This document shows positions 29,537 through 64,000 of a DNA stretch of 64,000 nt, one piece after another. A program made the position numbers and the translations under genes. Under the pieces are notes generated by a model. That model was not told where the DNA came from, searched no databases, and saw nothing but the letters and a program-made list of their open reading frames with translations. The number at the start of each line of letters is the position of its first letter. The stretch's first letter is position 1. The stretch comes from Yuukianura sp. NJ FZ-2021 (Eukaryota): NCBI GenBank assembly GCA_046563655.1, contig CM102290.1:7688001-7752000 (forward strand), read 5' to 3'.

Positions 29537-32500
29537 ATGAGGGTGATACAAAAACAGAATCCGGGAAGGAACATAAAGAGGCCAAAGAAGCGGTCCTGTT
29601 CGTCTTTCCGTACTTTCACGTTCCTTCTGTTTTGTTTGTTTCGACTTGAGGTAGGTTCTGCTGGAAATCCGGATGCGAAACGACTCTATGATGACCTCCT
29701 GTCCAACTACAATAAACTTGTGCGACCCGTCGTCAACGTCACTGATGCTCTCACTGTCAATATCAAGCTCAAACTGTCACAACTGATCGATGTGGTAAGA
29801 TTTACAAATAAAATTTACGCTTGTTTTGTTCCATTTTCAATTTCAAGTTTTATCCAAAATCCTAAACTCAAGCTATAATTTTTGAACATTTGATGTCAAA
29901 TTGGTGATCGATTGTTGTCATTCTAAAGAATGCACCGCACTTAAACACTTATGCTATTGGTTTCATTTTTTTTTGCGACAACAACAATACTCTCAGTGCT
30001 CTTATTTTGAATCAGTGTACCGTGCGTTAACTGTAGGGAAAAAAAATCCATTTATCCCCTTTCCAGCCAACTACTTTTCATACAAAATGTGCCAATATAA
30101 ATTTTCAGACCTTGAGAGGTCAAAGGTTGCAGTTGTTTTTTTTTATTTCATTTTTTGTGAGAAGTCTTGTTGTGATTAAGGGTCACGAAGATCACGTTCT
30201 AAGGTCAATGGCCAGGAGATCTTAAGAGATTAGACTTAATTATTTATGAGCAAAATTTCTCACTTCTAGTTTGATCATCCTTGGGTCTCAACTTTCTCTC
30301 TGGTCTAAAACCATGCCCGTTTGTGCCGTATTTCATTGGGCTTGTGCCATCATGACTTTTCTTGAGGCTCAGAGGAAATTTCTTTTTGCTTCCTTCGTAA
30401 GAAAGTTGGTTAGAATTTTGACACTTGCTTCAACTGTGAAAGATGGTTTCATGGTTTCTCAACCTAGAAGATGATGGGGAACGTTCGTAGAGTAAGCTAC
30501 AAAACCTAACCTAACCAAGTAACTTTTCTGTGCTCTTCTTCAGGAAAAGTATAAGAGCAAGCACACCATCCCTCGGTTGACTGAACATTTGTGCCTCTAC
30601 TCTGCTCCTCCATTTTCTCCCAGAAACTAATTGTTGGAAAGTAGAAAGTAGCAGTCCCCACTACTTTCTTCAGTAGTCACCACTTTTCCTTTTGCTGTGA
30701 CTTTCTTCCTCGACTGCTCCGAAAGAGCATGAAATTGCGAATTCCATAAGGTTCCCAGGAAATAATCTGATTAGTGTGGTCCTCACTCCCTATTGGATAT
30801 TCGAGTAAACAAGAATCATGGCTGGTGCCTGCAGTGGTGGTAGTGGCGGTTGTGTGGCTGAAAATGAAAGGACGCTTGAGGCCAATATGAATCACAATGT
30901 GATCCATTCGATGTGATAGATAACTTCAACTTTACCCGCTTTTTCCTCCTATTTTTCCGCCGGGCATTGGTGAAATGAAGGCTGAACTCTGAAGGTTTTT
31001 GCATACTATACTTGGACTTGTGACCGCAAGACACACAATAAGCTCGATACGAACTAACCAACAGCAAAACTACCAAATTTAAAATTTTTTTTAGTTAAAA
31101 ATGATTTAATGGCAGCTATGAGGTCACACCTTGCAAAATTTTTATTCGACCGTGTGAATATTACATTCGTTTAGCGTTTGCTGAGAGGGCTTAAAAGTTG
31201 AAAATTTATCTCCTATTTAAGTTTAACGGTGTTTGAGGATCATTTTGTAGTCGATTTGGCGTAGGAGTTTATGCTTCTGTTAACGTACAAAACCATGACC
31301 AGCATGCTTTAGAAGACGAAAGAATGTGGAATTGGTCAAAAGTACGACAGAGGAAAACAACCATATCACCATCATCCCACAAACTACCAGCCTCAGTTAT
31401 TCCGCTCAAACTTCCAAAATTGCCAATACTTTTGGTTCATTTTCTTCAAAAGTACCCAGTATAAACCGAGTTCACCACAACAGCCAAAGATCTCTTCGTG
31501 AGGAGAGGATAGACGGACCAGAAGGCGCTTCAGAGGGACGTCGTTACCGTCAGGGTAATTGCGCCAAGTGCTCTCATTCCATTCCGCTTCCATCGATTGA
31601 GAATATGAAGACAGAAGGACTTTTGGAAGAAAGTGGGACTGGATTAGGAAATAAGAAAGCTCAGTTCCAGCGAACACAGCGCTTTAATCTTGAGGACTTT
31701 ATTCCACTTTCCCCAATTCCAAAATCACCCGCCACACTCTTCGGCCACTTTCACACTACCAAAAAAAAGCATCGTCTAACCTAACTTTTCCAAATCAAAC
31801 AGCTAACAAACCCGCAGAGAAGATTTTCAAGTACTGGGGATTCCTTTCCAATAACGTTCCAAAAACCTTTGGCTACAAGAAAACTATCTACTGAAAATTT
31901 CAAGTCAGGAAAGCTAACCACACCAAAAGACCTCACAGACACCCTCAGGCTTTGATATAATTTGTTTGCGAGCCAAAATTTAAAATCGATGTTAGTAGAA
32001 ACTTGGGGACTCAATTAAGATTGAGCGGTTAGAATCTAATGAAAGAATTTTAGACAGAAAACTGAATTTGGCAAGAAGAGGAGCAGAGAAAATCTAATCT
32101 TAAAAACCAATTTTCTTCTAACCTTGTGGATGTGTGAACTTAATTACCGCCTCTTAAGAACTACATCCCGCCAACCTCACCTAACGTAATAGAAAGAAAG
32201 ATAATCTAACGTAATCCAAGGGACAACGTAGCCTAAACTAATCTGACGGCGAAAAAAATTGAGAGCTTAACCTAATCAAAACGAAGAAACCGACTTCAGG
32301 CGTTGTTTTTTCAAGTTTTGTACAAATTTCTGAGATTTAGTGACTTCCAAAGTCTGGATTGATGACAACTGGGCGTTTCACTCGATTTGATTTGGAATTA
32401 GAGAGAGAAAGGAAAGCGTTGAAGCACTGCTTTGACTCGGCTCAATCCTGGAATGGATTGTATTGATTGGCGAAACGGTGGCTCCCGTTTACTACGCCTT

Positions 32501-35500
32501 CAGTGTTCAAACTGTCAAGAGACCAAGCAGCAGTCTCCGTTTTGTTTCAAATTCTCCCGCCTCTGGAAAAGCGACTTGAGTCTCCACTGTCAGGAGCCCT
32601 TCATCTATTAATTATTCATAGACTTTGTGCTTTCATAGTTGCTCTAGGACTCATGCAGTCTATTCCTCCCGGATTAAGTCCAGAAGCATCCAGGAAAGAC
32701 GCAGAGTTTGGCACAAGGAAACGCAAAGACCATTTGCAATACTTATGAAGATTAAAACAAATTGGGAACCATTTTAGGAAATTGTCTCACTTAAGACTAT
32801 CCCTCCAGCTCAGCTTCAAAATTTCAATTCACAATTATGCTGATTTCAGCTTATGAAAAAAATCTCAATTTTTCCTATCGTGACAGTATACCCAAAGAAA
32901 AATGCTAAAGATCCCGCTAAAAGTCGATTTTTTAAAGCTTGACATGTTTACCAAACCGACGCAAGATACAGCTCAATTTCTCAAAAAACTGAGAATCGAC
33001 CCGGGAGACTTCCGGAATTCTCTTGGAGACCAGACCCTTTCCTGTTTTTGAAAGAAAAACTTTTTTGGCCTTCACACGTTGAAATACAAGAACGTGACAC
33101 TTTCAGTGCCACTGGCCACACCATCTTTTACGTCCTCCCAAGTGATTTTTACGTCAAAGAAGTAAAAGGAAAGATGTTAAAGCGGAATAGGAACTTTCCC
33201 TGTTCCCTAAGTCAACACTTTGGACGTCCATTGTTGTCTCACGGACTTTATCGTTGTTGACACTCCGTTCATTTACATTCACTTACCTTAGGAAGAAGAA
33301 GTTCTAGTGCAAACACAAGGAAATACAAGCCGCAGCATAACTTTCCACTGATGTGTCAACAACCATACACTTCGGAAGTACTCCTGCTACTGCCATAATG
33401 TATTCCCTCTGACTTCGACTTAAGAAGTGTTTGAGGGCAGATTAGTTTCCATACACACATGAAAAAGGAAGTTTACGGCTACTTTCTCTTTTCTAAAATT
33501 CTATAACGTCCATGAGACCTAACCAATTTCAATAGTTCGCACAATCGTCAGACTTACCCAACTCTTCAATCCTTTTCTTCAACTTTACCACAACTGTGAC
33601 TTTCAGCTGAAAAAATATCAACTTGACATGAAATGTTAAAGTTTCATCACTAATGTTTCCCTTTCTTAACAAAAAAAGTTTTTCTACTTACTGAAAGTGA
33701 AAACATAGTCTTGTAACAATTTTTCTTTTTGGTCTTTTCTTGTAGAACCTCAAGAACCAAATCATGACAACGAATTTATGGGTGGAACAGGTAAGCAGTT
33801 ATGTCTCTATGTCACTTTTAAGAAAAAAGAAAAGAAAAGTGTCCCTGTTACATGACAGTACAGGGGTTTTTGTGGCAGCGGTTTTTTTTTAAGTAAAAAC
33901 GAAGGAAAACTACTCATTTTTAGCAAAGCTAATGAGAAAAGTTGTGTCTTTTTTTTGGAAAAAGACACAGTATATACACTAGAGAGAGAGAAAGAAAAAG
34001 AGCGAAAAGTTTAGCAAAGATCTGTTAACTTCTTTTTCAAATTTCACACGAGAATTGTGTCCATTTTAAATTAAAAATTGATTTTTGACTTTTAAATTTA
34101 AAAAAAAATCTTTTTTAACAATTTTGTGGATGTGATTTTTCATTTTGTTTTATTGATTCTTAATAGTATTGGAACGACTACAAGCTCAAATGGAATCCCA
34201 ATGAATACGGCGGAGTCAACATGCTTCACGTTCCGTCAGATCACATTTGGCGACCCGACATTGTAATGAAACACCGAAGAATTCCAAAGCGTCTTACTAA
34301 ATCAATGAATTGTCTGTTTTTTTTTCTAATTTGATTCTCATTGTTTGGTTTTTCTTTAGGTTCTGTACAACAAGTAAGGAATCACGTCTTCAATTATTCC
34401 TAGTAGAACTACAACTCTCTAGCATCAAAGTCCCTTTGCTCTCTCCGTTCTATTTTTCTAGTAACAATCCTACTCCTTTCTATCACAAATTGAACCCAAC
34501 TCTGTTCAAAAGTTCCACGCTTTCTTCTAAAATCCAAACGTAACTTTCCCAAGGGTGCAAAGGAAGGAACGCCTTCCATACCAATTGAGTGAAAGTCCAT
34601 AAAGTTACAAATGACCACCACAGTGGAGAGAAGGCGCCTCTTTTTAAAATGAACGTATTCGACTTTGAATAGAGATGTCTTCTTCTTGTGTGCGTGTATT
34701 TTAAATTTCAGTGCTGACGGGAATTTTGAAGTGACGCTGGCCACAAAGGCTACACTCTACCATGATGGGAAAGTGGAATGGAGACCGCCTGCAATATACA
34801 AGTCTTCCTGTGAGGTCAGTGGATCCTTGCAGACTGAAAGATGTACTATTGGTATATGTACCTAGAGATGTTGAAAGTAAATTGCCTAGGGATGTGCGGA
34901 CAAAATAGAAAGTTACGTTAGCAACACAAGTGTTAGAATGTCAACTTACGAAGGAAAAATTGGCGTGTAAAATCAGAGCTAAGTTTTTTTTTCTACCGAA
35001 TGTCTCTGCTTCCTCATTTCATTCTTTGGAAAGAATTTTCACAGGGAGATTTTTAAAGAATTTCGTCGCTCATCTTCTTTTTGAATGGAAGTGCCAAAGT
35101 GAAAGCAGAGAGGCGGAAAGAGTTGATGTAGAAAAATTAATAAAACTTTTTTTCAGAAGCTAAAGTTTTCTCCAGAGAGTTCCAAATGTAAAAAATAGGA
35201 ATAGGAAATTCCAAGTAAAGATTTCTTTTTAAAGATTCTTACCGGTTGAGCATTTTGTTCATTCCGTTAGCCTTTTAAATCAAAAACAATTAATTTCCAA
35301 ATCAATTTTTTTTAGATGTCTTGACCTTATGATAATTATGACCATTGACCTCACAAAAGTTTCTGTCTGCTTGTTTTAGATCAACGTCGAGTACTTTCCG
35401 TTTGACGAACAAACATGCGCAATGAAATTCGGTTCATGGACATATGACGGCTATCAAGTAAAAATATTTGTTTCTTCTGAGATTTGAAAACTTCAAATCT

Positions 35501-37684
35501 CGAATTCGCGATGATTCAGTTGACCTCTGACCTCCGTTTTGAAATTTGACGTTGTAGGTGGACTTGAGGCATATTGATGAGCAAGTGGGGTCAACTGTAG
35601 TTCCGGTTGGAGTTGATTTGAGTGAATTCTACCTGTCTGTCGAATGGGATATTCTGGACGTGCCGGCTGTACGACATGAACGTTATTATACCGTAAGATT
35701 CCTTTTTGGAAGAAAGAGAAAGGCTATGGCCTACTTTGAAAGGCCATTTGAACAGAGGATGCCATGAATGCTAACGATGACGAGTTCTTTTTCCTTTTGT
35801 CAAAATATTTTTTAGTGCTGCGAGGAGCCATATTTAGATATAACATTTAATATAACAATGCGAAGGAAGACACTGTTCTACACTGTAAATCTAATTATAC
35901 CATGCATGGGAATTTCCTTCCTCACAATCCTCGTCTTCTATCTTCCGTCCGACTCTGGAGAGAAAGTAAGTAAGCAAAAAAAAGAAGAGTTTTAGTAAAG
36001 AAAAGCACACGGACTATGTAATCTAAATTGGAGACTTCTAGAATCCAAAGTAGGAAAATCCAGAGTAGAGAAAGTCTTAGTTTGTTTCATTTTCACTTCC
36101 CAGGTGAGTCTCTCGATCTCCATTCTGCTGTCTCTGACTGTCTTCTTTCTCCTTCTGGCCGAAATTATTCCACCAACGAGTTTGGTAGTTCCACTCCTAG
36201 GAAAATTCGTACTTTTTACTATGATTCTAGACACTGTGAGGTAAGAAACGTAACGAAACAGGGTTCTAAAGCCATCCGTTTCAAAAACTGTTTAGAATTT
36301 TTAGCATTTAGACTAACACCATCACGCCTCCTAGGAATGGTTCTTGGATTTTTATTGTTTTCCATTTTCAGCATTTGTGTCACAGTGGTGGTGCTCAATG
36401 TTCACTTTCGAACGCCACAGACGCACACAATGGCTCCTTGGGTTCGACGAGTATTTCTTCACATTCTGCCACGGTTACTCGTAATGAGGAGGCCTCAGTA
36501 CTACTTGGAAAGGTACAAAATTTCAAAAAAAGCAAAGAAAAAAAGTTGGAAGATGACAAAAGCTTTTGTGCTTGGAGTGAGAGGCAACATTTTGAACTTC
36601 CTGTTCAAACCTTAACCAAACCTGCAACCAGCCATCCGGTATAATTTTGTCGTTATTTCTAAAGGCTTTCAGGGAAGTCGGGACAGACCTTAGGTTCAGC
36701 CGCTGGCTCAAGGTTTCTCGTCCGAACTTGCACGGGACTTGAACTTAGACCATCACTTTCGCTTCATGATCCTCTTCAACTAAGAGATGCTCTTGGATTT
36801 GGAGGTCTTCTGACTGGGCACTCGGCGCATGACTACTCTCCAAGGTAAGTGTGCACACGTCAATCAAATCTTAAATTTCCAGCAGGAGGTCAAGATGTGC
36901 TCAAATTTTTAAACAACTTTTCAGTCTAATAGGAGTCTTTGAAATTCGGAGTTTTGAGAAAAGTGGAGTTTTGTTCAAAGTTTTTGCAATTTCGATATTG
37001 CAAAACTTTGAAAACTTTTGTTTTCTCTAGAAAACAACTTGTTTGTTGAAGCGTTTAAAGAATTTTTTGGCAACTTATTTGGAAATCCCGCTGCGAACTT
37101 GGCAATATAGCTAGACCCGTCAATGTTTTTAGAACTGAAGTTGAAAATTATTGTTTTTAGCCAAGAAGTGGCTGATGCTCTAGGACTGAACGGAAGCTGC
37201 AAGTTGCATGGAATGCCGCCTCCACCGCCCCCACCAGTACCATCCAGAACCTCCTCCCATCCCCTCCTTCGTAAGAACAATTTAAGTGACTTGGATGGAG
37301 ACGATTCACCAAAAGAAGGGGACGAAATACCCGGGTCTTCCAGAACTTGTTGTCCGGAAGTAGCCAAGGCAGCCTACAGTGTTCGCTTCATTGCAGATCA
37401 TACGAGGAGAGAAGAAGAAACTATTCGGGTATAACCTATTCAACCTAACTTTAATTCAGTGCAAAACATAACCTCACAATTTACCCTAACATTTCTAGGT
37501 CAAAGAAGATTGGAAGTACGTCGCAATGGTGCTGGATCGCCTCTTTCTTTGGATATTTACACTCGCTGTTGTCGTCGGAACAGGCGGAATCATTTTGCAA
37601 GCACCGACACTCTACGATGATCGCGACCCCATTGACTTTCCAACTACAAACGTTATATCAAGAGTAACCAAAAGGCCTGTTTAG
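29537..37684 (+). CDS. nAChRalpha3: Nicotinic acetylcholine receptor alpha subunit, alpha3-like (~596 aa, 13 coding exons): 29537-29794, 33746-33790, 34167-34262, 34360-34373, 34712-34814, 35380-35457, 35558-35692, 35816-35965, 36104-36240, 36372-36512, 36665-36844, 37161-37428, 37499-37684
   Basis: All junctions are GT-AG and the exons sum to 1791 nt in frame. Motifs: [12 protein letters not shown], Cys-loop [15 protein letters not shown], loop B WTYDG, and vicinal cysteines YYTCCEEPY that mark an alpha subunit. TM2-TM3 [44 protein letters not shown] matches insect alpha3. TM4 region reads [18 protein letters not shown]. The N-terminal start is less certain. Confidence 0.93.
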
Positions 37685-51184: not shown

Positions 51185-52706
51185 ATGGCAGATTGTTACA
51201 CGTTCCTGTTTGCTCCAATGGACGGCACAGGTAGTGTGAATCCTTTAATAGGATTAGCCGAACAACTGCTTCACAGGCGGCATAAGGTCGTATTCGCCAC
51301 GCCCGTAAATTGGAAAGGAAAACTGGAAGCGCTCGGTTTCATCGAAGAATTGTTAGACGCGCCTGCGTCAGACGAAGATCCAAACAATGCAACAGAGCAA
51401 CAAAATCGCGGCGACAAGTTTGCACAAATTTTGGCTAAATCCTGTGCTGCGGCTCGGTTACCACCAATTGAGCGACATGAAGCTTTGCATCTTGAAATTT
51501 TTGCGGAACTTTTTAACCAAAACAAAAATCAACATCAAAGGTTGAAAGAAATCATGAGCAAAGTAAAACCGGACGTGGTAATCGCTGATCAAGTCATTCA
51601 TATACCAGCATTAATGGATAGCGGTAATTTCAATAATTTAAGAGGAATAATAAATATGATCGAATTGAAAAGATAATTGGTGGTGGCGTTAGGTACTCCG
51701 TGGATACTTTGCGTTCTTTACAACCCCATCGGAATCTCGAGGACTCCCGATGCCCCTCCACCATATTCTGGATATGCAGAAGATAGTGATCGAAGTCTAT
51801 GGAAAAGTTATGACGACAAAGCCAAAGAGGTATATCGAGATTTTGTTCAAGATATTAAGAACTGGAATATCGAAAATGGCGGGCCGCCAGACGAATTCAC
51901 CTTTCCTAATTTCGTCAAATCTTCGCCCTGGGGAAATCTTTACATGTATCCAATTGAGTTGGATTATACTCCGCTTCGTCCAAATCCACCGAATTGGCAT
52001 CGCTTCGACACCTTCGTAAGAAATACTGAAGGAAGCTTTGAAATTCCAGAGAAACTGAAGACAGGTCAAGGGAAACTTGTGTATTTCTCTATGGGCACAA
52101 TTGGATCAGCAGACATTGACCTCATGAAGAGACTCGTCAAATTACTCGCAAAGTCACCAAACAGATTCATTGTGTCGAAAGGTAAATTTTATAAAAAGTC
52201 AAATTTTTATTTTCATTTTGACAACTTTAAATATTTGTAGGACCCAGAGGAGATGAACTCGAACTGGCTGACAATATGTGGGGAGAGAATAGCGTTCCCC
52301 AGACGAGAGTGCTGCCATTGGTTGACCTTGTGATTACCCACGGGGGGAACAACACAGTGACAGAATCATTCTACTTTGGCAAACGGACGTTAGTTCTAGG
52401 ACATCTATGGGATCAACTCGGTTAGAAATTCTTTCACTTGAAAATTTTACACAATTTGAATAATGGCGAAACACATTTTTCCAAATCGTAGATAATGCCC
52501 AGCGTATTCACGATACTGGCTTGGGCTTGCGTCTAGATCCCTATAAGGTTACTCAGGACCAACTCCTAAACAGCATTGAGCGATTACTGGCCGATGACCT
52601 GTTGGAGAGAAGAATGAAATCTATTTCAAAACGAATTCAATCCTCCAATGGCCAATCCGCAGCGGCAGATTTGATTGAAAACATTGCAGCAAAATGCCGA
52701 GTGTAG
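51185..52706 (+). CDS. UGT: UDP-glycosyltransferase (GT1, cytosolic mite/bacterial type) copy 2, intact, 440 aa; exons 51185-51623, 51693-52181, 52241-52420, 52492-52706
   Basis: Exons total 1323 nt in frame with GT-AG junctions. Motifs: KLVYFSMGTIGS, RFIVSKG, and the UGT signature VPQTRVLPLVDLVITHGGNNTVTESFYFGKRTLVLGHLWDQLDNAQR. There is no signal peptide and no C-terminal TM helix, unlike canonical insect or vertebrate ER UGTs. Confidence 0.92.
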
Positions 52707-53059: not shown

Positions 53060-53817
53060 CCCCGCATTCCCCTTCCGAGTCTGCACATCCGTTTCCGTGA
53101 TGTAAATGGAGCATAACCTTGACCTATGACACCAATATAGGTCACTTAAGGTGAATCCAAAAACTGATTTTTAGTCGCCTGGAGGTTTGTAGTTACTCAT
53201 TAAAAAGCTGCAAGGTCACAAAGTTGTTGTCTCAATGCGATGAACACCTTTTGTAAGGGTCATTTTTTTGATTTCCGTGAAAAAATGTGCTTGACCTTGA
53301 CCTTTGACCCGGAAATTGGCCACTTCCGGTCAAACCAGAGACCGATTAGTCACCCCTGTACCATGTGGAGGTCATCTGCGAAGACAGGTTGAAAATCGGT
53401 ATTGTGATTCCTGAGTTATAGACGCGCGTAGAATGAGCGACGCCATTTTGCAACTTTCATCGTCTATATCTCCAGAACCGTAGGTCAAAGGTCAAGGTCA
53501 CCTACAGCAAAGTTGTTCCCCTCAATGAAATGAACAACTTTTGTACAGGCCATTTGTCCAAATTCCGTCGAAAATGTACTTGACCTTGACCTTTGACCCG
53601 GAAGTTGGCCACTTCCGGTCAAACCGAAAACCACTTATCCACCCCTGGACCATGTGCAGTTCATCTGTGAAGACAGATTGAAAATCGGTCCAGCGGTTCC
53701 AGAGATGTTGTGGCTAGTATAGTCGGACGGACAGACGGACGGACAGACGGACGGACAGACGGACGGACACACTGACGGACGGCCATTACGATCCCTATAA
53801 GTATCTGACGATACTTA
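53060..53817. mobile_element. Helentron/HINE (DINE-1-like) element with a ~289-bp internal tandem duplication
   Basis: The right end ATCTGACGATACTTA (53803-53817) is identical to that of the 47.9-kb copy and forms the hairpin TAAGTATC-tgac-GATACTTA. It carries a (GACG/GACA)n microsatellite at ~53725-53782 and duplicated blocks starting AAGTTGTT at 53221 and 53510, each with TGACCTTGACCTTTGACCCGGAA. The left boundary is not defined. Confidence 0.72.
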
Positions 53818-55419
53818 ATAAAGATAGATAATTTGGATGGATGTATAATTTGTAAAGTTCACTTGGATTTAGTACCACACGTTAAAGAAATGGCAGTTAA
53901 GCATTCCTTTTAAAAAGGGATTTTGCTTTTAAAGCAAAACAGCAAAAAAAAAAGCTATTTCCAGCAAAAACCGAAGCATCACCTTTTAGAAAGGAACACT
54001 GATCTTAAGAAGAAACTTAATAAGAAGGAACTCAATGCCTCAATTTAATTTATAGCAAAATGTTTAATAGGCATCGATTGTACCATTTTTGTGAATCTCT
54101 ATGAATGTTTTTATCAAGTATTACACATAATTTCTGTGTGCAATTTATTTGAAAAATGACCATGAATTTCAATTAGAAAGGGAAAATCGACTGGTTTGTT
54201 AGCAAGCCTAATTCCAAATTAGCTTTTTTCTACTCTCCTGTCCCATTTTCTGCATCTGTGGAAAGTAAACGCCCATAATGTACAGAGAGATTCATTGTGA
54301 CAAGGAGAGAATGGAAAGCAAGCAGCAAAAAGAAGAAAAAATCAGAGACGTACAGAACGAGCACGGGAACACTTTTGTTGATGAATGTCCTCCGGTTTGA
54401 TTGTCGAAATTCAAAAGATTCGGCGCTTTTTCTTTTTTCACCAGCCTTTTCACCGAAAAAACCTGAAATGGAGAACCGTCGACGAAGAGAAACGAAATTT
54501 TGGCTTTGGTTAGAGCCAAAGGGGAAATGAAAAAAAAAACGGAAAAACCGAAAAAACGAGGAGCAGAAAAAACGGTAACTTTTTCTTCCATTTCATTCTA
54601 CCCATTTTTTTCTTTCAAAATCCGCGGCGGGCATTCTCTGTTTCTCCCTCGCTTTGGCTGCTAAAGGCTCCACTGGAATGCCGTGTCTTTCCAGGAGGTT
54701 GAGCAGGAGCAGGGGAGGGAAGTTTTGAATTTGCGACTGGCTTCTAGCTCTGCTTTCACTTTCTCCTTCATCCTCTACCAGACGAGTCGTGCGTCGGTTT
54801 CCCCTGCTCTTGCCCTACTCCAAACCTTGTTTGCCAGAAGAGAAAACAAGAAAAAATTAAACCGAATCGAGTTCTTTTTTTCAAAAATTAATTTGGGCTA
54901 AATCGTACTTTTCTTGTTTTCCTGTATTCCTGTGCGCTGTTTTCAATTTTTATCAATTTGTTTAAAAAGTTGTCTTTTCTATTTGTTTTTTTTTATTTTG
55001 AAAAAATAACATTTACCCACACAAAATGTTTCGAAATTTCTCCTTTTACATTCTCTGTTTGCTTCCTCGTGATTTGAAATCTGCTTGATCTTGTCATACC
55101 ACAAAATCCAAAATCCTGTTTTTCAAAAAAAAACACCACAACTACTCTTACCCGCGTAAACCTGAAGTGCAAATTCCATTGCAGGAAACCAAGTGCATTA
55201 CAGAGTAAAAGTGAAAGTGGAAAATTGAATTCTGACTGTCTCTGCGTTGTTGTAGTAAATGAAATTTTTAGAACCAAGTTTGGTGCCATTTGTAGTTCGC
55301 ACGAGAGTGTTTGAAATTGAAGGATTTGAGAATGACTTGACCTGACGGGAATTTTTTTTAGCGGTGTGGTGAAAACTGTCCAGTACTTTGTGCTTACGTT
55401 GAAATTGAGCAATAAAGCA

Positions 55420-58400
55420 ATGTGTTACCTTTGGATGATTCTGTTCCTCAGTGCCACTGGAGCCTGGAGACCAGCTCTCTCTGGAAATCCAGATGCAAAG
55501 AGATTATATGACGAACTCCTGTCCAACTACAATAAGTTAGTACGTCCAGTCGTCAATACTTCGGACGTCCTCAATGTCCAAATTAGACTCAAACTATCAC
55601 AGCTCATTGATGTGGTAAGTTCTAAATGTTGCAAACGCAAAAAAATACAAGTAGGGCCAAATGAAATTTTCCAAGGGTTTTATTTCTGGCTCAGTTTATA
55701 GGCCTAAATTGGTAGCCAAACCACATATTGTTTGTTAAAAGACCCGGGAGGAGAAAGTCATGGCCAAATAAATAGAAGAAAAGGGGGAGAAAGAACGAAG
55801 AAACTTTGTCTTAAAGTTAAGCTCCTTAAGATCTTCTTATTTTCTCATTAGAGTCTCCAATGGAACCTAGGAGGTCTCCCTACTTTTTTGGAAAGTCTCC
55901 CGGGCATTTCCTTCTTTCTCCAGCTTTTCAAAAAAGCCATGGGGGTTATGGGTGGAAAAAGGCGGGAAAGAATGCCCAGTATTTCGTTTTTGAATAAACG
56001 TCATGCTTCCAGGAATTGGTGGGAACGTTGACATGTGACGGAGGGACATTGGGCTTTTGGGGAGAGACGCATCCTAGAACTCCAAAGTTTGCACAGAGCT
56101 TTCTCCAACTTTCACCGTTTCCGTAGCCTAGACGTTGTCACATTTAAAGCGACGACGGGAAAACCAAGTCCTGTGTCTATCACCACCTTGTTGTGGTTTC
56201 AGCCTAACCTAAAGGCTGGAAGGCAGAAGTGGAGTTATTATTGATGAATTCTAACAAAGATACTCTTGAAGGGCCGTTTCCTTTAGTGTTTTTGGGCCTC
56301 GAGGGCTGGAATGGAGTCTTATTAGAACATATTAGATGAAAGACCTTATTTATTACTTGAGATCTTCAAGTAAAAGATTTGAGCTTCAAAAAGACAATAG
56401 AAGATCAACGTCTTTGCGTCAGGCCGGAGGGGGACAAAGTTGAAAGCAAAAGACGATGTCACTGCTGTAACTTTCTCCGCTGGGAAAGTTACGGAGTGAC
56501 GATGATATTGATTCCGAAAAGCAGAACAAGAGCAGAAATCACTCGTTTTCAGGCGAACGCTTCAACTTTTTTTCAGTTTTTTTTTGCAGCACAAAGATGT
56601 TACGATAAAAAAGGAAACGTTAGGGTAACTCTAAACAACAGAAATGTTCCACATAGAAAAAGATTGTCAACGACCAAAACTTTTTTTGTGCGTCTTGCTT
56701 ATTTGAACACCACAAAAAATTGAAAGTTTTGTTGGGAACATTGCAGTTCCAAATTTCCGGTCAAGAATGATGTTAAAATTGGGAAAGTTGTGTTTGCAGA
56801 AAATAGTTGAGGGGTATAAGGCATATTCGATTGCGGTTGGGAAAGGATTTTGTAGATGAAAGAAAAGTGTCATGAGGTATTGCAGGAATTGGCTGAATTG
56901 ATGAATTTTTTCCTCAGGTTCTCAGCACTCTGTATCATGCTCCTCCGTTCATCTTTGTCACTCACACTGAAACCAACAGAGCATGAAAAAAACGGAGAAA
57001 AAAACGAGAAACCTCCAGTCAAAAAAAAAAATTCTCCAAAAAAAACTCCAATACCACATCTTTCAGCATTTTTCATCTAAAAAAACGATTCTTTGTTTCA
57101 CTCGTGTTCTGTACAATGTTTGTGGCATTTCCTTTTCTCATGACATGCGAATTCACGACGTGCAAATATTTTGTTGGAGCAGAAAAATATCCATTTCCGT
57201 TTTTTATTTCAAAAACAGCTTTTCGAATTTGCCCTCCAGAAAAAAAGAATACCAGTTTATACAAAAAGTTCACAAACCTATTTTTGAATTTGTACCTGGC
57301 CCATGAAATATTCGTAATTTAAAAAAATGGTTTCACATGGTGTTTTTCGGATTTTCTGGATTGATCTGTACTTACAAATTCATAAAGTATGACACGTTGG
57401 TGAGATAGTGGCAAAGAAAAATTGGTTTTTCCAAAAATGTCAACTTCGTAATGCTCAACATCTTCAAAACTAAATGTGTTTCTTACAGTATGATTCCGAA
57501 AAGTAATGCTGTTTGTTTCCCTCATGTTACGTTTTAGATTGAATGAATTTGATCCCGCAAAACACTTTTTGAACCATTTGAAACTGTTTTGAAAAAAACA
57601 GTTTGAAGATCATTAGAAATGATCTAAGCAGTACGCCAGTGTTGAGACTCTATTCCAAACTAAGAACTCAAATCGAGGTTTGACATTTTTGAAGAATTAA
57701 AAGTCCTCTCACAATAAAAATACATTATGATCGCAATTTTCAGGCCAACGTAAAAAAAATCACTTTTTTTTTGTGTAAACTCCCCTAAAACTTTCTCTTC
57801 TTCATGAATCCTATTGAGAGAGTCAATAAAGACAAGGCATTTTTCCAAAAACGTTCTAACGTAAAAGATGTGTTGTAATTTTTTTACTTTCCTTGTTTCA
57901 CTTTTAACAACAATTTTTTACATGTGAATGCATAGGGCGGGGCTATCGATTTCCCGCATAACTTTTGTAGAAATTTGTTTTCTCGTATTCCTCATTTTCT
58001 CGACAAAAGTTATTTGATTTTGAGGAATTGGGTGGTTGATTTACCAATTTCAAGTATTCAATGCTTTTTTGAAAATTTACTGTTATTTCCTTGTGCGTAT
58101 TAATTCTAATTTTGTTTTCAGAATTTGAAAAACCAAATAATGACGACCAACTTGTGGGTGGAGCAGGTACGTCATAAAAACACTTCAATTCAATTTATTG
58201 TCTAAGTTGAAATTACTAATTCCAGTGAAAACGACAGTTAACAAGTTGGGTAGAATACATACAGTCTGTTCCCAAAGAACCTTACAAGTAGGAATTAAAC
58301 TTTATTTATGACCTGTCTATTGGATTTTCCAGAACTTGGGTCGAAAAGTACAGAGCTTTCTTTGAATACACTCTTAACCCAAGCATGTATTCTTCATAAT

Positions 58401-61400
58401 CAGTTCATTCAAAAATATAAAAAATCTTCCAAACTGCCAAAACGCAAATCAGAACCACTCCCACCACGTCCATTTTTGTTTCTTAATAGCCTTTTTAATT
58501 AATTCACTTTATAATATTCTAGGAGAAAAGGAGAATCTCTGTAGATATTTGGCACCCTTGAGTCCTTTTCTAAGAGCCAACCCATTTTCTCACCGAATTT
58601 CACTTACCTAAACTGCTAATTACCCCAGTTAATAGAAGCTAGGCAAGAGGAGGAAAAAGGAAGTTCGTTGTGCGCGGGAGGCCTAATGGCAATTCTTCCA
58701 GATCGACTGCCAAGGCCAAAACAGAGCCAGTCATCATCATCTAAAAGGCGGAGGGAAGATGAGGTTTTTTGTGTGTGTGTTCACTAAGCCTCTCTTTTAA
58801 AGACCTAACCTAAACACTTTCCCCAAGGACAAAGGAAAAGTTCCTCACTTCCCCGGCAAAAGTAGAGGAGAAAATGGGCCAGAGAGGCTGCGGAAGATTT
58901 GATCTCAAAAAATAGAGAAGCATAAATCATCATTAATGGACAGAGTATGATGAGGCTACGAGAGAAAAGAAAGTGTGGGAGAAGGAAGTGTCAGGTTATG
59001 CTCACCTCATGATCTCACTCTCTTCCAGGAAGTCCAAAGGACTTCTACACTTTTTTACGTTAACAATTTCAAAAAATGATAAAAGAAAACTAAAATTTAG
59101 GAAGGGTAGAAAAGTTTCTTCTTGAACGACCTACGGACCCTTAGCTTTTCTTCTGTTTATTAAATTTAGGTTAGGTTAAGTTAGCTTTTAGTCTCTTCTA
59201 AGTTCGAAGTGAAACTTTTGGTAGGCCCTTAATACTCCCCCTCCTTATAAATTATTGTGAGAGGACAAAGGGGAAACGGAAAACTTATTCCTTTCCTTGT
59301 ATGTCACATTATTGTTAGGTTCCTTTGAACTTGGAGACAATTCAACAAAAGAAAGGCAAGGAAAGGCTTTCACCGAGGCTTTCCGCTTTTACTTTCACTT
59401 TCTTCCACAATTAGCTTTTACATCAATCCTATCCAGAGAAAAAAAATTCAAAGAAGTTTTTTTAGACAGAAAAAACGAAGGATTTTTTTTCGTTTTACTT
59501 GACTCGTTTGTTATTATGCCTGGAACACACAGGGGAGTGGAGGAGGTGCGTGCGTGCTAAACTTTCACATGCCCCTAAAACCCCACATTTTCCAAAGCCT
59601 CTGAGCTCTGTTTCGTTTTTGACGAGTGAAAGTGAAAGGTCTTGGATTTATGGCCTCAACGTAGCCATAGTTTATCCCGCTTTCTTTTCGTAGCCCATGA
59701 ATTTTTTTTTGAAATTCAACGATGATATTGGATAAAAAATGAAAGCGAAAGAGTTATAGGGTGAGGTTGAGGATGATTGAAAACGATAGAATTGAAAACG
59801 TCGTTTGAAAAATTCAAACAAGATTATTTTTGATACTGCGTTGTTGTTGCCTTTCTTTTCATAACTTCCTTTTTGATTTTTTTTTCTAAATTTGAACATT
59901 TAGTATTGGTATGACTATAAACTTCACTGGGAACCAAATGAATACGGAGGAGTGCGCATGCTCCACGTTCCAAGCGACCATATCTGGAGACCTGACATTG
60001 TAAGATTTTTGAGAAAGAAATACGTTCAAAATGAAAAAAATACGCCTTGCTAATAAAATTTGAACATCATTTTTCAGGTTCTGTATAACAAGTAAGTTTA
60101 ACTTTGAAAATCAAATTTTAATTTTTCAAAATATTTATTAGTTTTCCAAATTTTTCATACTCAGATTTTCTGTGGAATGTGCGATTCGTTTTAGAGAAAG
60201 ATCAATTCGAATTAAAATATACATTCATTGTGACAGCAAAATGAGTTTTCGAATTTAATAATTTTGAAATAAATTTAGAATTTGCGTAGTAAAATTTTGA
60301 AAAGTGAAAAATTGAAACAAAGCAAAGTTAATTTCATGTTCCCACCGTATACTTAACGCTTTAGTAAAACAGAGTTGCAGTCACTTTCATACCTTTTTTG
60401 ACACACCTAAACTGTAATTCTTTGTAAATAATTTAATAGCCTAAAAGCCACAAAGCTAATCCCCAACTTTCTTTCGGTAAACACAGTGCAGATGGAAATT
60501 TTGAGGTAACACTTGCAACAAAAGCGACAATTCATCACACGGGTCTCGTTGAATGGAAACCGCCTGCCATTTACAAATCCTCTTGTGAGGTAAACACAAT
60601 GTTGAAAAATGACAAGGAATACGCTGGCATATTCTTTTCAAATTTTTTCAAAAAAAAATTCATTTTTTTTAAAGATTGATGTAGAGTACTTTCCCTTTGA
60701 TGAACAAACGTGCATTTTAAAATTTGGAAGTTGGACATATGACGGCTTCAAAGTGGATTTGAGGCACTTCCAGGAAAATGAATCCACAACAATAGTTACG
60801 GATGGAGTAGATTTAACTGAATTTTATATTTCGGTAGAATGGGATATTTTAGAAGTTCCGGCCGAAAGGTAACAGAATTTAAAAAGCGATTCATATGTGA
60901 GGCTTGTTCCAAACTTTAGTTCGTCATGCGTTTTCCCACTTTTTTTTAACTTTCCAATCCTTTCGTTCGAGAAAAAAAAGTTTTTTAATCGAAAGTTTTT
61001 GATTAGATTGAATTGAAATTGCACGAGATTGGTGTGAGAGAACAAAAAAGGCGGCGAAAAGCTGAAATTGAGTTTGGAACAATCCGTTTTGGTAGACAAA
61101 CTTTGACTTTAGGGATTTGAGTAATTGTTTTTCTATTTTAATTTTTAGGCACGTCAAGTACTATACTTGCTGTGACGGTGATTGTCAATTTCACAGAAGC
61201 CAACAATTTTGAAAAAAAAGCCGTTAGAACAGCAGGCACTTTCAAAAAAAAAGAACAACAGTCGTCTCAAAATACAAAATTGAATTTTCAAAAGTTTCAA
61301 AAATCAAATCCATTTTTCATCTTACACTTTCTAAGTTTAATGTCATTGTTCGTCCTATAGGAAAATGTATTTTTTTTTATTTGGGAGTTTTTCAAAATAC

Positions 61401-62660
61401 CGAAAGATTTATTTTGCTATTCGTGCAAATATTTTTAATTAAAGAGAAAGTAACGTAGTTCATGGCCGATTATTAAGATTAGCAATTCAGCGTTCCTTCT
61501 CACTTTGGGAAAAGTTGTTGACCATTGGAAAGGATTTTGGAGTTGATGAGGTTCCCACGGTATCCAGTCATTTGGAAGTGCCTCTAGACGGAAAGTGCGG
61601 CTCTTGAAAATGGTTGGCTTCTGGAGAAAGTGACTAACTTTCTGTTTGGAACCTTATCTCGGTAAGCCTTCCTTTCATCACTGTTTTTCCCAGTGTCCAG
61701 CTTCATCCATTTCTCAAAATCAGTTGACAGCCTTTCATGCAGTACTGGACTCTTTAAAAGCTCCACGTTAACGATCAACGTGACCCCATTTGACCCAAAG
61801 TCCATTTTAGTCAAACCTCAAAAAATGTAAATGGACGTTCGTTGTTTGAGCTTTGGTGACAAGGGGATATAAAATGTAAACCGTGTTCGACAATTTGATT
61901 TGCGAAACATAGAGTCCTATGATCCTAATACTGTAAGCTGAGGCTGTGCAGAACGTGGTTTGAAAAAGGAACGTGGCTGGAACTGTTCGGTAGTACTAGT
62001 AGTTAATGAACAGTGGTTTTGTTTGAATGGATTAGACATCACGTTTAACATTACAATGCGACGGAAGACTCTGTTCTACACGGTGAACTTGATTATTCCG
62101 TGTATGGGAATTTCGTTCCTGACTGTGCTCACTTTCTACCTGCCATCCGATTCTGGAGAGAAGGTAAAGGCATAGCTTTCACTTTGATTACTAATTGACA
62201 ATTGACTGGAAAACTACTTGGAAGGTGTTAAGTTCTACTGTTGAAGTGACTGTTCTAGGTGACTCTGGCCATCTCCATCCTCATTAGTCTTCACGTGTTC
62301 TTCCTCCTCGTGGTGGAAATTATTCCACCGACGAGTTTAGTCGTTCCACTACTTGGGAAGTATCTCATCTTCGCCATGATCCTAGTCTCAATAAGGTACA
62401 CATAACCTAAACTTGTTTCAAAATTTTATTATTATTATTTTAAATATCAATTTATTTGAGAAAAGAATGAAGAAATTTTGGAAAATAGTTAACTTTCTCT
62501 TTTCATTCCGCAGCATCTGTGTCACCGTGGTAGTTCTGAATGTACATTTCCGTTCCCCACAGACGCACACAATGGCCCCTTGGGTCCGCCGCGTCTTTCT
62601 GCATATTCTGCCACGACTCTTAGTGATGCGGAGGCCTCAGTACTGCATGGATACGCACAG
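55420..62660 (+). CDS. nAChRalpha4: Nicotinic acetylcholine receptor alpha subunit, alpha4-like, 3'-incomplete; exons 55420-55614, 58122-58166, 59904-59999, 60078-60091, 60487-60589, 60675-60868, 61149-61177, 61650-61661, 62036-62163, 62259-62395, 62514-62660; remainder beyond the window
   Basis: Signal peptide followed by [12 protein letters not shown], Cys-loop [15 protein letters not shown], and YYTCCD. TM2-TM3 [46 protein letters not shown] carries the SLHVFF/VVE/KYLIFAM signature of insect alpha4. All junctions are GT-AG except the acceptor of exon 61650-61661. Confidence 0.9.
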
Positions 62661-64000
62661 GTAAGTCCATTCCAAGTGCCGTTTCAATTAATCCAAGTCC
62701 ATGGACCCACTTTCCAAGCACTTTGGCACTTGCTCACTTCCTCTCCAGAGGCAAAGGAGTTATTAATGCAAAAGCTCCCCTCTGCTTGAATGTCATTTCC
62801 GGCCTATGCGCTCCACTAAACAAATTGCCAATTAAAAACCACGTCTAAAACGCCTTCCTTTGGCCTCGAGAGTCGATGGAACCGGAGAGGCACTTTCTTA
62901 CTGTCAATATTTTCACTAATTTTGAAACGTTGACGTACATCCACCAGGCATGTTTTAATCACTTTGAAGTTTTTAAATTCCAGGTTGACTTACTCAGCCC
63001 AGATTAATTTCCTGTTTTCTTAGGCGACCGCCAGTCACGCACTGTTTTTGTAAAGCTTTTAACATGTGCGGTTCAAGTCAAAGAGAAAGTTAAACTAAAC
63101 TGAGCTAACTTTTGAGAATTCCAAATTAAAGTTAATGAAATGGTCGGTTCCATCCAGTTATCTCCCTCTGCGGTGCAATTTCGAAGTTTGAAAGTTTGTC
63201 TCAAAGTACAACGTAAGTAAAGAAATCTTTTGCGAGAAACTGTCCCTTCCAGTCACTTCAACCGAAAAATTCTTGCTAAACTTTCACTTTTGTCATTTTG
63301 TGTTTGTTTCAAACAAGTTGAGGTTCTGATTACCAAGAAGTTTAAGTCAAATGTGGCAGGTTGAAAGGAGAGAACCAACAACGTTCCAGTAAAAGCTAAA
63401 CTTTGACAAAGTAAACATGAGAGATGACAGAGGACCCTACGGCCAGATTCATTCCACAGCTTTTAGAAGAAACGACTTTCCGAGAAAGAGCTACTTGTTC
63501 TAGTACTAGCATAACCTCACGTTCAGAAATGTTGATGGACAGGCGAGGGCCTCGCTTTCACCGTGTCTTTCCAAAGGCAGCTCCAGAAAGTAGCTCATCC
63601 CGTTCCAAAAGTCATTGTTTGAAGAAGCATAAGTGGAAGGGAAGTGGATGAGGAGCGAGGGCTTTTGCGAAAACAAGCGACTTGGCATCATAGGATGGCA
63701 TTTGTCCATAATGAACTTTCAGGCTCCGAGCACTGGAAGCTGGGACTGGAGCGCTGGGAGCCTGTCGCTGCTAAATATGGCATTTGCCGGTTTGCCTTTT
63801 ATCTCCTCCTTCCAAGTCCTACTCCCTTGTCACTCCTGTCATGCCCATCTTCATGTAGTTCATAAGGCCTCACAGCATCCTTTTCCCCGTCAACATTTCA
63901 GAATTGTGCGACTTCCACTTTCGCCAGTTTCCGAACTTTGACAATTGGACTTGGAGTCTCAAGTCTAGCTTTTTCTGTCTCAAAAACCCTGTGACACGTT

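Follow-up and report, generated by a model that had tools for sequence, protein, structure and literature searches.

How does a nicotinic acetylcholine receptor (nAChR) gene come by the residues of its agonist-binding loop C when the codons for them lie behind an intron that seems to end in GG? The question is raised by an alpha4-like subunit gene of Yuukianura sp. NJ FZ-2021, found in a stretch of 64,000 nucleotides (nt) of contig CM102290.1 (positions 7,688,001-7,752,000) that we call the window and whose coordinates are used throughout. Neonicotinoids act on the insect-type receptor to which alpha4 contributes a subunit, and the agonist pocket includes the tyrosine of loop C. In this gene the Glu-Pro-Tyr-Leu stretch of loop C (EPYL) stands on a 12-nt microexon. 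The answer that we favour is that the intron in front of it is probably a young insertion, spliced as a GT-GG intron, with 3' signals recruited from duplicated coding sequence. The features between loop C and the first transmembrane segment (TM1) are as follows.

61149-61177, plus strand: exon of 29 nt encoding (R)HVKYYTCCD and the first base of the next codon (sequence reading, joins translated)
61178-61649, plus strand: putative GT-GG intron of 472 nt, donor GTGATT, acceptor GG at 61648-49; related loci are without it (sequence, alignments)
61650-61661, plus strand: microexon of 12 nt, AACCTTATCTCG, completing Glu and encoding Pro-Tyr-Leu and the first base of Asp (loop C EPYL)
61662-62035, plus strand: canonical GT-AG intron of 374 nt, GTAAGC...TAG; related loci are without this intron too
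62036-62163, plus strand: exon (D)...SGEK, the end of loop C and TM1 (sequence, tblastn, Pfam)

The exon at 61149-61177 is preceded by tttttag, ends in TGC TGT GAC G and is followed by gtgatt, and the exon at 62036 is preceded by gattag and begins DITFN. Translated joins show that passing through 61650-61661 restores YTCCDEPY in frame and that skipping the microexon gives CCD-DITFN, also in frame, as an earlier note on this DNA had described for a product without EPYL. The same note held that the EPYL codons occur once in the intron, preceded by GG and followed by GTAAGC, and that the two nearest AGs could not serve in its place. Both points are borne out: the microexon is flanked by tttGG (the GG being 61648-49) and GTAAGC, an acceptor at AG 61625-26 leads to a stop three codons on, and one at AG 61629-30 causes a frameshift with a stop within exon 62036. 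Between 61630 and 61665 there are no AG dinucleotides. The sole boundary shift that leaves the mRNA identical is one base leftward, giving a GG...TG intron, and GT...GG is therefore the least unusual description. The stretch 61178-62035 contains 78 in-frame, stop-free candidate exons bounded by AG...GT/GC, and not one of them codes for xPYx. In the whole 64-kb window, both strands included, there are five matches to the relaxed pattern A[AG]CCNTAYNNNG, one of which lies in the GG intron; about 0.05 such matches are expected per 858 nt before the requirements of Leu, phase and a GTAAG donor are added, and chance is therefore excluded. The segment 61650-61661 is the only sequence able to supply EPYL.

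The GG itself could have been a sequencing or assembly error, the true base at 61648 being A, a reading for which the rarity of GG acceptors a priori speaks and nothing further. Five public sequencing runs contain this DNA, none of them recorded as RNA; contigs from four of the five were compared with the window over 60400-62700 and show no splice joints. Three contigs cover 61648-49: X1 record 8 (61493-62700; four differences, all elsewhere), X3 record 19 (61503-61721; no differences) and X4 record 27 (61530-62242; nine differences, the closest at 61683), and across all three there are no differences between 61494 and 61683. At other positions X1 and X4 do depart from the window, and they are therefore not mere assembly copies. 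X4 carries a separate organism label and derives from a separate sample and study, and the GG is thus covered in two samples, two studies and two labels; the two labels are about 1% apart in introns and both have GG. In X4 record 26 the exon 61149-61177 and its donor are unchanged. Contigs may omit minor variants; as far as they show, the GG is genuine genomic sequence and cannot be put down to a base-call error or, in all likelihood, to a private allele. The base-call error that the earlier note had allowed for is refuted, given that three contigs from two samples agree on GG, and we consider any error of sequencing or assembly at this base scarcely credible. A recent AG>GG mutant allele, its other suggestion, is unlikely, since GG is common to two labels about 1% diverged and the repeat alignment described below gives an exonic C at position -2. 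Of the three alternatives considered in that note, a real GT-GG intron appears to be the best remaining.

To place the two introns we used a metagenome scan that recovered 80 related loci. Loop C is contiguous in one frame in 54 of the 80, and in the loci that have the start of TM1 it is contiguous with TM1 in 36 out of 36 and split in none. Among loci with full query coverage, the highest identity to exon 60675-60868 (82%) is found in L001 and L003; both have one exon running from (R)NEKFY through TM1, and in the alignment the window's three pieces tile that exon. Six genomic loci (L001, L003, L004, L045, L053 and L059) have an exon that starts (R)N.K and runs unbroken via loop C into TM1, its start being the intron position that matches window 60869-61148. 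Downstream of the match in L006 there was no loop C or TM1 motif. Judging from these alignments, both introns flanking the microexon are lineage-specific. An ancestral single loop C/TM1 exon would have been cut by two new phase-1 introns 12 nt apart, leaving EPYL on a microexon. As an observation in its own right, a metagenome contig from another organism (L025:678-760) has KFYSCCEE fused out of frame to RKTLFYTVN; its DNA is without the PYLDI..FN..R stretch, which could reflect a deletion, a pseudogene or a mis-assembly.

The upstream intron seems to preserve traces of its own origin. Its last 22 nt and the last 22 nt of the preceding exon form a direct repeat.

61156-61177, plus strand: exonic copy of the direct repeat (copy 1), AAGTACTATACTTGCTGTGACG, closing exon 61149-61177
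61628-61649, plus strand: intronic copy of the direct repeat (copy 2), AAGTGACTAACTTTCTGTTTGG, ending with the GG acceptor

The two copies align with 17 identities, four mismatches and two one-base gaps, and the alignment is anchored exactly at the splice junction. Its anchored extension score of 9 is reached at 2 of 9054 window positions and in 3 of 5000 flank shuffles, and 14 other acceptor flanks score 1-2, none reaching 9. Among the gene's ten introns only the GG intron stands out (1/2000 shuffles), the next-best scoring 5 (34/2000). By these three controls the p value of the direct repeat is about 2e-4 to 6e-4. A second repeat on the 3' side of the microexon (CATCAC..GTTT against the start of exon 62036) was considered and rejected as not significant, 802 of 4873 genomic controls being as high, and no flanking repeat was found at the intron 61662-62035.

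Copy 2 contains what can be recognised by eye as splicing signals at the 3' end of this intron: the branch-like CTAAC at 61634-38, the pyrimidine run TTTCTGTTT at 61639-61647 and the GG at 61648-49. The earlier note had reported a near-perfect branch-point motif 13 nt upstream; the motif stands (CTAAC, 61634-61638), and the distance is corrected, the likely branch A at 61637 being 12 nt from the last intron base. From the exonic to the intronic copy CTATAC becomes CTAAC, TTGCTGT becomes TTTCTGT and the final GACG becomes TTGG. Branch motif, pyrimidine tract and acceptor dinucleotide would thus all appear to descend from coding sequence. Position -2 of the GG intron aligns with an exonic C; the ancestral exonic bases at the acceptor are CG, and therefore the site may never have been AG.

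The second peculiarity of this intron is a terminal inverted repeat that is predicted to fold into a stem.

61184-61222, plus strand: 5' arm of the stem (terminal inverted repeat), starting 6 nt after the donor (blastn inverted match, minimum free energy and centroid folds)
61599-61634, plus strand: 3' arm of the stem, ending 3 nt before the putative branch A at 61637 (blastn, folds, duplex)

The predicted duplex of the first 45 with the last 55 nt of the GG intron has an energy of -34.3 kcal/mol, a value that none of 2000 shuffles and none of 1163 genomic tiles attained, and eleven other introns lie between -4 and -23 kcal/mol. There is no unusual stem in the intron 61662-62035. The GG intron is also length-polymorphic among the contigs compared (61211-61430), all variants falling in the loop that the stem arms enclose. 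Among them are insertions of 12 nt after 61371 (X1 and X3), of 9 nt after 61374 (X4) and, A-rich, of 11 nt after 61243 (X4), and X3 has lost 10 nt at 61342.

The exons of the gene are listed below.

55420-62660, plus strand: nAChR alpha4-like gene, first 11 exons, continuing beyond this range (tblastn with springtail alpha4 P0081, Pfam)
55420-55614, 58122-58166, 59904-59999, 60078-60091, 60487-60589, 60675-60868, plus strand: exons 1-6
61149-61177, 61650-61661, 62036-62163, 62259-62395, 62514-62660, plus strand: exons 7-11

With the microexon included, the 11 exons give an open reading of 366 amino acids (aa). The introns of the gene have GT donors in ten cases out of ten and AG acceptors in nine, GG being found only at 61648-49. 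PF02931 (Neur_chan_LBD) is matched by exon 60675-60866 (E 1.9e-17) and PF02932 (Neur_chan_memb) by the two following large exons (E 1.1e-07 and 1e-11). The joined reading contains the Cys-loop (C-x13-C) and the vicinal-Cys motif YTCCDEPY, in which xPY requires the microexon. A protein search with exon 60675-60868 gave 1377 matches at E <= 0.001 among 1392 candidates, and the named matches among the best 120 of the 1377 are arthropod alpha4 or 'alpha-like' subunits. For exon 60639-60869 no identical protein was found; there were no matches above 82% identity at 86% query coverage, bar one with 87% over 40%. Identity to the springtail alpha4 P0081 (tblastn) is 100% over 45 aa (exon 62259-62393) and 94% over the next 50 aa. 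By sequence, the gene is closest to a springtail alpha4 among the proteins compared, and the taxon looks springtail-like. The alpha4 assignment made in the earlier note agrees with the named matches and with the presence of both Pfam families, and on this sequence evidence the placement in the alpha4 orthology group holds. Among the contigs there are five exonic differences in 750 nt, all of them synonymous third-position changes, and 29 intronic variable places in 1551 nt. Ten out of ten fetched proteins of relatives that reach loop C keep EPYL. Given the open frame of 366 aa, the identity to P0081 and the exclusively synonymous exonic changes, the gene looks intact and functional and is under purifying selection, rather than a decaying copy.

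These observations can be assembled into a probable history. The upstream intron would go back to an insert of about 450 nt that entered the coding exon and duplicated about 22 nt of target sequence, after which the exonic copy would have remained coding and the second copy would have mutated to CTAAC, a short pyrimidine tract and a terminal GG. A repeat of the target on both sides of an insert is the footprint known from new Daphnia introns formed at staggered breaks (PMC4202315); combined with inverted ends, it is what a DNA transposon would leave as well. The termini are GT...GG, and the major-type CTAAC and TTTCTGTTT are present, judged by eye; the major spliceosome would then remove 61178-61649 as a GT-GG intron. 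Several circumstances may favour use of the GG. The branch motif is strong and stands 12 nt before it, no AG competes with it between 61630 and 61665, and the microexon could be marked out through exon definition by its strong GTAAGC donor; the terminal stem might also help, by placing the donor of the GG intron beside the branch site.

A number of points weigh against this history. Use of the GG acceptor is argued from coding constraint only. An A-to-G change at -2 normally abolishes a 3' splice site, as in SLC26A4 c.919-2A>G, which leads to exon skipping (PMC8987850), and the three coding GT-GG junctions of the fly discussed below each have a very similar GT-AG alternative, of which there is none here. 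The branch-acceptor distance of 12 nt compares with about 24-30 nt for the CTAAT/TTAAC-like motifs in the gene's other introns, as estimated by eye. A target duplication of 22 nt is long for a transposon, and blastn of both introns against the window and the 80 loci found no further copy of either, the only match being the inverted repeat of the GG intron with itself. The fold of the 532-nt segment 61149-61680, which includes the whole GG intron, is ordinary (z = -1.55, 5/100 shuffles as stable), and only the terminal stem stands out in it. Finally, the repeat and the stem share 7 nt, and therefore one of them may in part be a side effect of the other.

The main rival reading of the same DNA is that the GG is a crippled site, hardly or not at all used, and that the microexon is skipped to give an in-frame alpha4 without EPYL, either as a recently fixed loss of function or as a structural subunit that does not bind agonist. 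Skipping is indeed in frame, acceptors with G at -2 usually fail (PMC8987850) and the divergence of about 1% between the samples is too little time for an unused 12-nt exon to decay. However, neither sample shows any damage to the 12 nt, to their phase or to the strong donor, the exonic differences are synonymous in five cases out of five and EPYL is kept in every one of the ten fetched relatives. Moreover, the intronic copy has gained CTAAC and a pyrimidine run where the exon has CTATAC and TTGCTGT, a gain that suggests selection for splicing there. We regard a crippled site as unlikely. A regulated microexon, in which the weak GG would make inclusion dependent on tissue or stage and both EPYL-plus and EPYL-minus subunits would be used, also benefits from the in-frame skipping. 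Neuronal genes often carry regulated microexons, and TGC is the motif of SRRM4-type microexon enhancers. The motif is absent from 61620-61649, and in relatives loop C is not an exon of its own, which leaves them unable to produce the minus form. Non-canonical sites in fly and human are often alternative (PMC4528330, PMC4176328). On balance regulation of this kind appears distinctly unlikely. A more ambitious combination would have the GT-GG intron as a recent insert whose acceptor has yet to become canonical, its branch site, pyrimidine tract and acceptor all being derived from the duplicated receptor coding sequence. The 39/36-nt stem would keep the donor beside the branch site and so let the spliceosome accept GG 12 nt downstream, and the weak site would make EPYL inclusion tunable, so that this lineage alone among arthropods could produce an alpha4 isoform blind to agonist; taken as a whole this is quite unlikely.

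Removal as a GT-GG intron by the minor spliceosome (U12-type), with a short branch-acceptor spacing that tolerates a non-AG end, would be a further route to the same mRNA. The U12 branch consensus is TCCTTAAC-like and lies 10-15 nt from the 3' end; TGACTAAC here matches it at about 5/8 positions, and the 12 nt from the branch A to the 3' end fit the short U12 spacing. U12-type GT-GG introns are on record, with eight in human and mouse (PMC1557818, Table 2). The donor GTGATTGTC is nevertheless unlike the GTATCCTTT of the fly U12 examples, whose 5' splice site GTATCCTT stands against GTGATTGT at the donor here (PMC4528330, File S4). The branch motif, in turn, fits the major-type CTAAC, and springtails, to which the organism probably belongs, are reported to be extremely depleted in minor introns (PMC10639083). 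We therefore consider a U12-type intron very improbable.

GT-GG introns and intron gain by insertion with target duplication are both known in kind. The fly has six GT-GG introns among about 60,000, five of them with RNA-seq junction support (PMC4528330, Table 3). Three fly GT-GG junctions are coding (two in GluClalpha and one in hts), each with the GT-AG alternative mentioned above, as listed in File S4 of the same paper. That file lists six non-canonical junctions in fly Cys-loop receptor genes, i.e. GT-GG twice and GT-CG once in GluClalpha, GT-AT twice in pHCl and GA-AG once in nAChRalpha4, the last being a coding intron without alternative. With exceptions in GluClalpha, pHCl and nAChRalpha4, Cys-loop receptor genes thus recur among the rule-benders, at least in that list. 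The fly GT-GG introns share with the one described here GT and GG as termini, next to signals that are otherwise of the usual major type, and several are in Cys-loop receptor genes (PMC4528330); they differ in being supported by RNA-seq, whereas the window intron is known from DNA alone and has no in-frame AG alternative. In fly nAChRalpha4 the exception is at the donor, in contrast to the acceptor in the window gene. Among vertebrates, the conserved GT-GG intron of BANP (PMC4176328) is likewise a GT-GG boundary in a coding gene kept over evolutionary time. There, GG replaced an AG still present in fishes, whereas the window site is suggested to descend from exonic CG, and the conservation of the window GG spans two close samples.

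For the mode of origin, a close parallel is found in Daphnia, where new introns arose by insertion at staggered breaks and carry a direct repeat with one copy at either end; one of these introns has at its 3' end 8 bp that once belonged to the upstream exon (PMC4202315). The neointrons of Daphnia pulex, like the GG intron, are absent in relatives and have a direct repeat with a former exon copy at the 3' end. The same source gives 118 of 120 neointrons as GT-AG and no non-AG acceptor, with a mean length of about 78 bp, compared with 472 bp for the GG intron. Euglenid non-conventional and intermediate introns also combine a non-canonical border with an RNA stem joining the intron ends (PMC4770533); the organisms are unrelated and the window intron keeps a GT donor, a branch motif and a pyrimidine tract, so that the resemblance is formal only. 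The microexon, for its part, resembles neuronal microexons (3-27 nt, in frame) in being a 12-nt, frame-preserving exon of a neuronal receptor gene at the ligand-binding surface. Neuronal microexons are, however, defined by regulated inclusion shown on RNA, whereas the present case comes from DNA, with no TGC in the 30 nt before the microexon (61620-61649). A loop C microexon was not found described in the literature searched on insect nAChR microexons, springtail non-canonical splicing and Collembola nAChRs.

Two consequences follow for the reading of such genes. If the GG is needed for a binding-competent subunit, gene predictors will yield a wrong alpha4 without EPYL, misleading target-site comparisons. 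The birth of the intron would also be unusually legible here, the ancestral exon being known from relatives and the duplicated exon end being still recognisable and apparently reshaped into splicing signals.

The window contains a second nAChR alpha-type gene in tandem (29663-37675, plus strand), upstream of alpha4. Its loop C (about 35815-35845) and TM1 are in one exon, and a canonical intron stands before them, between YYT and CC. Both receptor genes have a 14-nt microexon encoding VLYNN (60078-60091 and 34360-34373, plus strand) with canonical AG and GTAAG flanks, which therefore appears to predate their duplication. In the alpha4 gene an 85-nt intron (60590-60674, plus strand) splits the Cys-loop between SSCE and IDVEY. 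The Cys-loop stretch is one exon in the related genomic fragments P0021, P0024 and P0025, and the tandem paralogue has an intron in the same place (34818-35379).

Just upstream of alpha4, open frames at 51677-52706 (plus strand) look glycosyltransferase-like by eye, with a THGG..N..E-like stretch that we take to be a glycosyltransferase motif; the first of these frames (187 aa) matched no Pfam family at E <= 0.001. Between these frames and the first exon of alpha4 a short tandem repeat (about 53700-53830) reads as repeated SVCP in one frame and as repeated TDRR in another.

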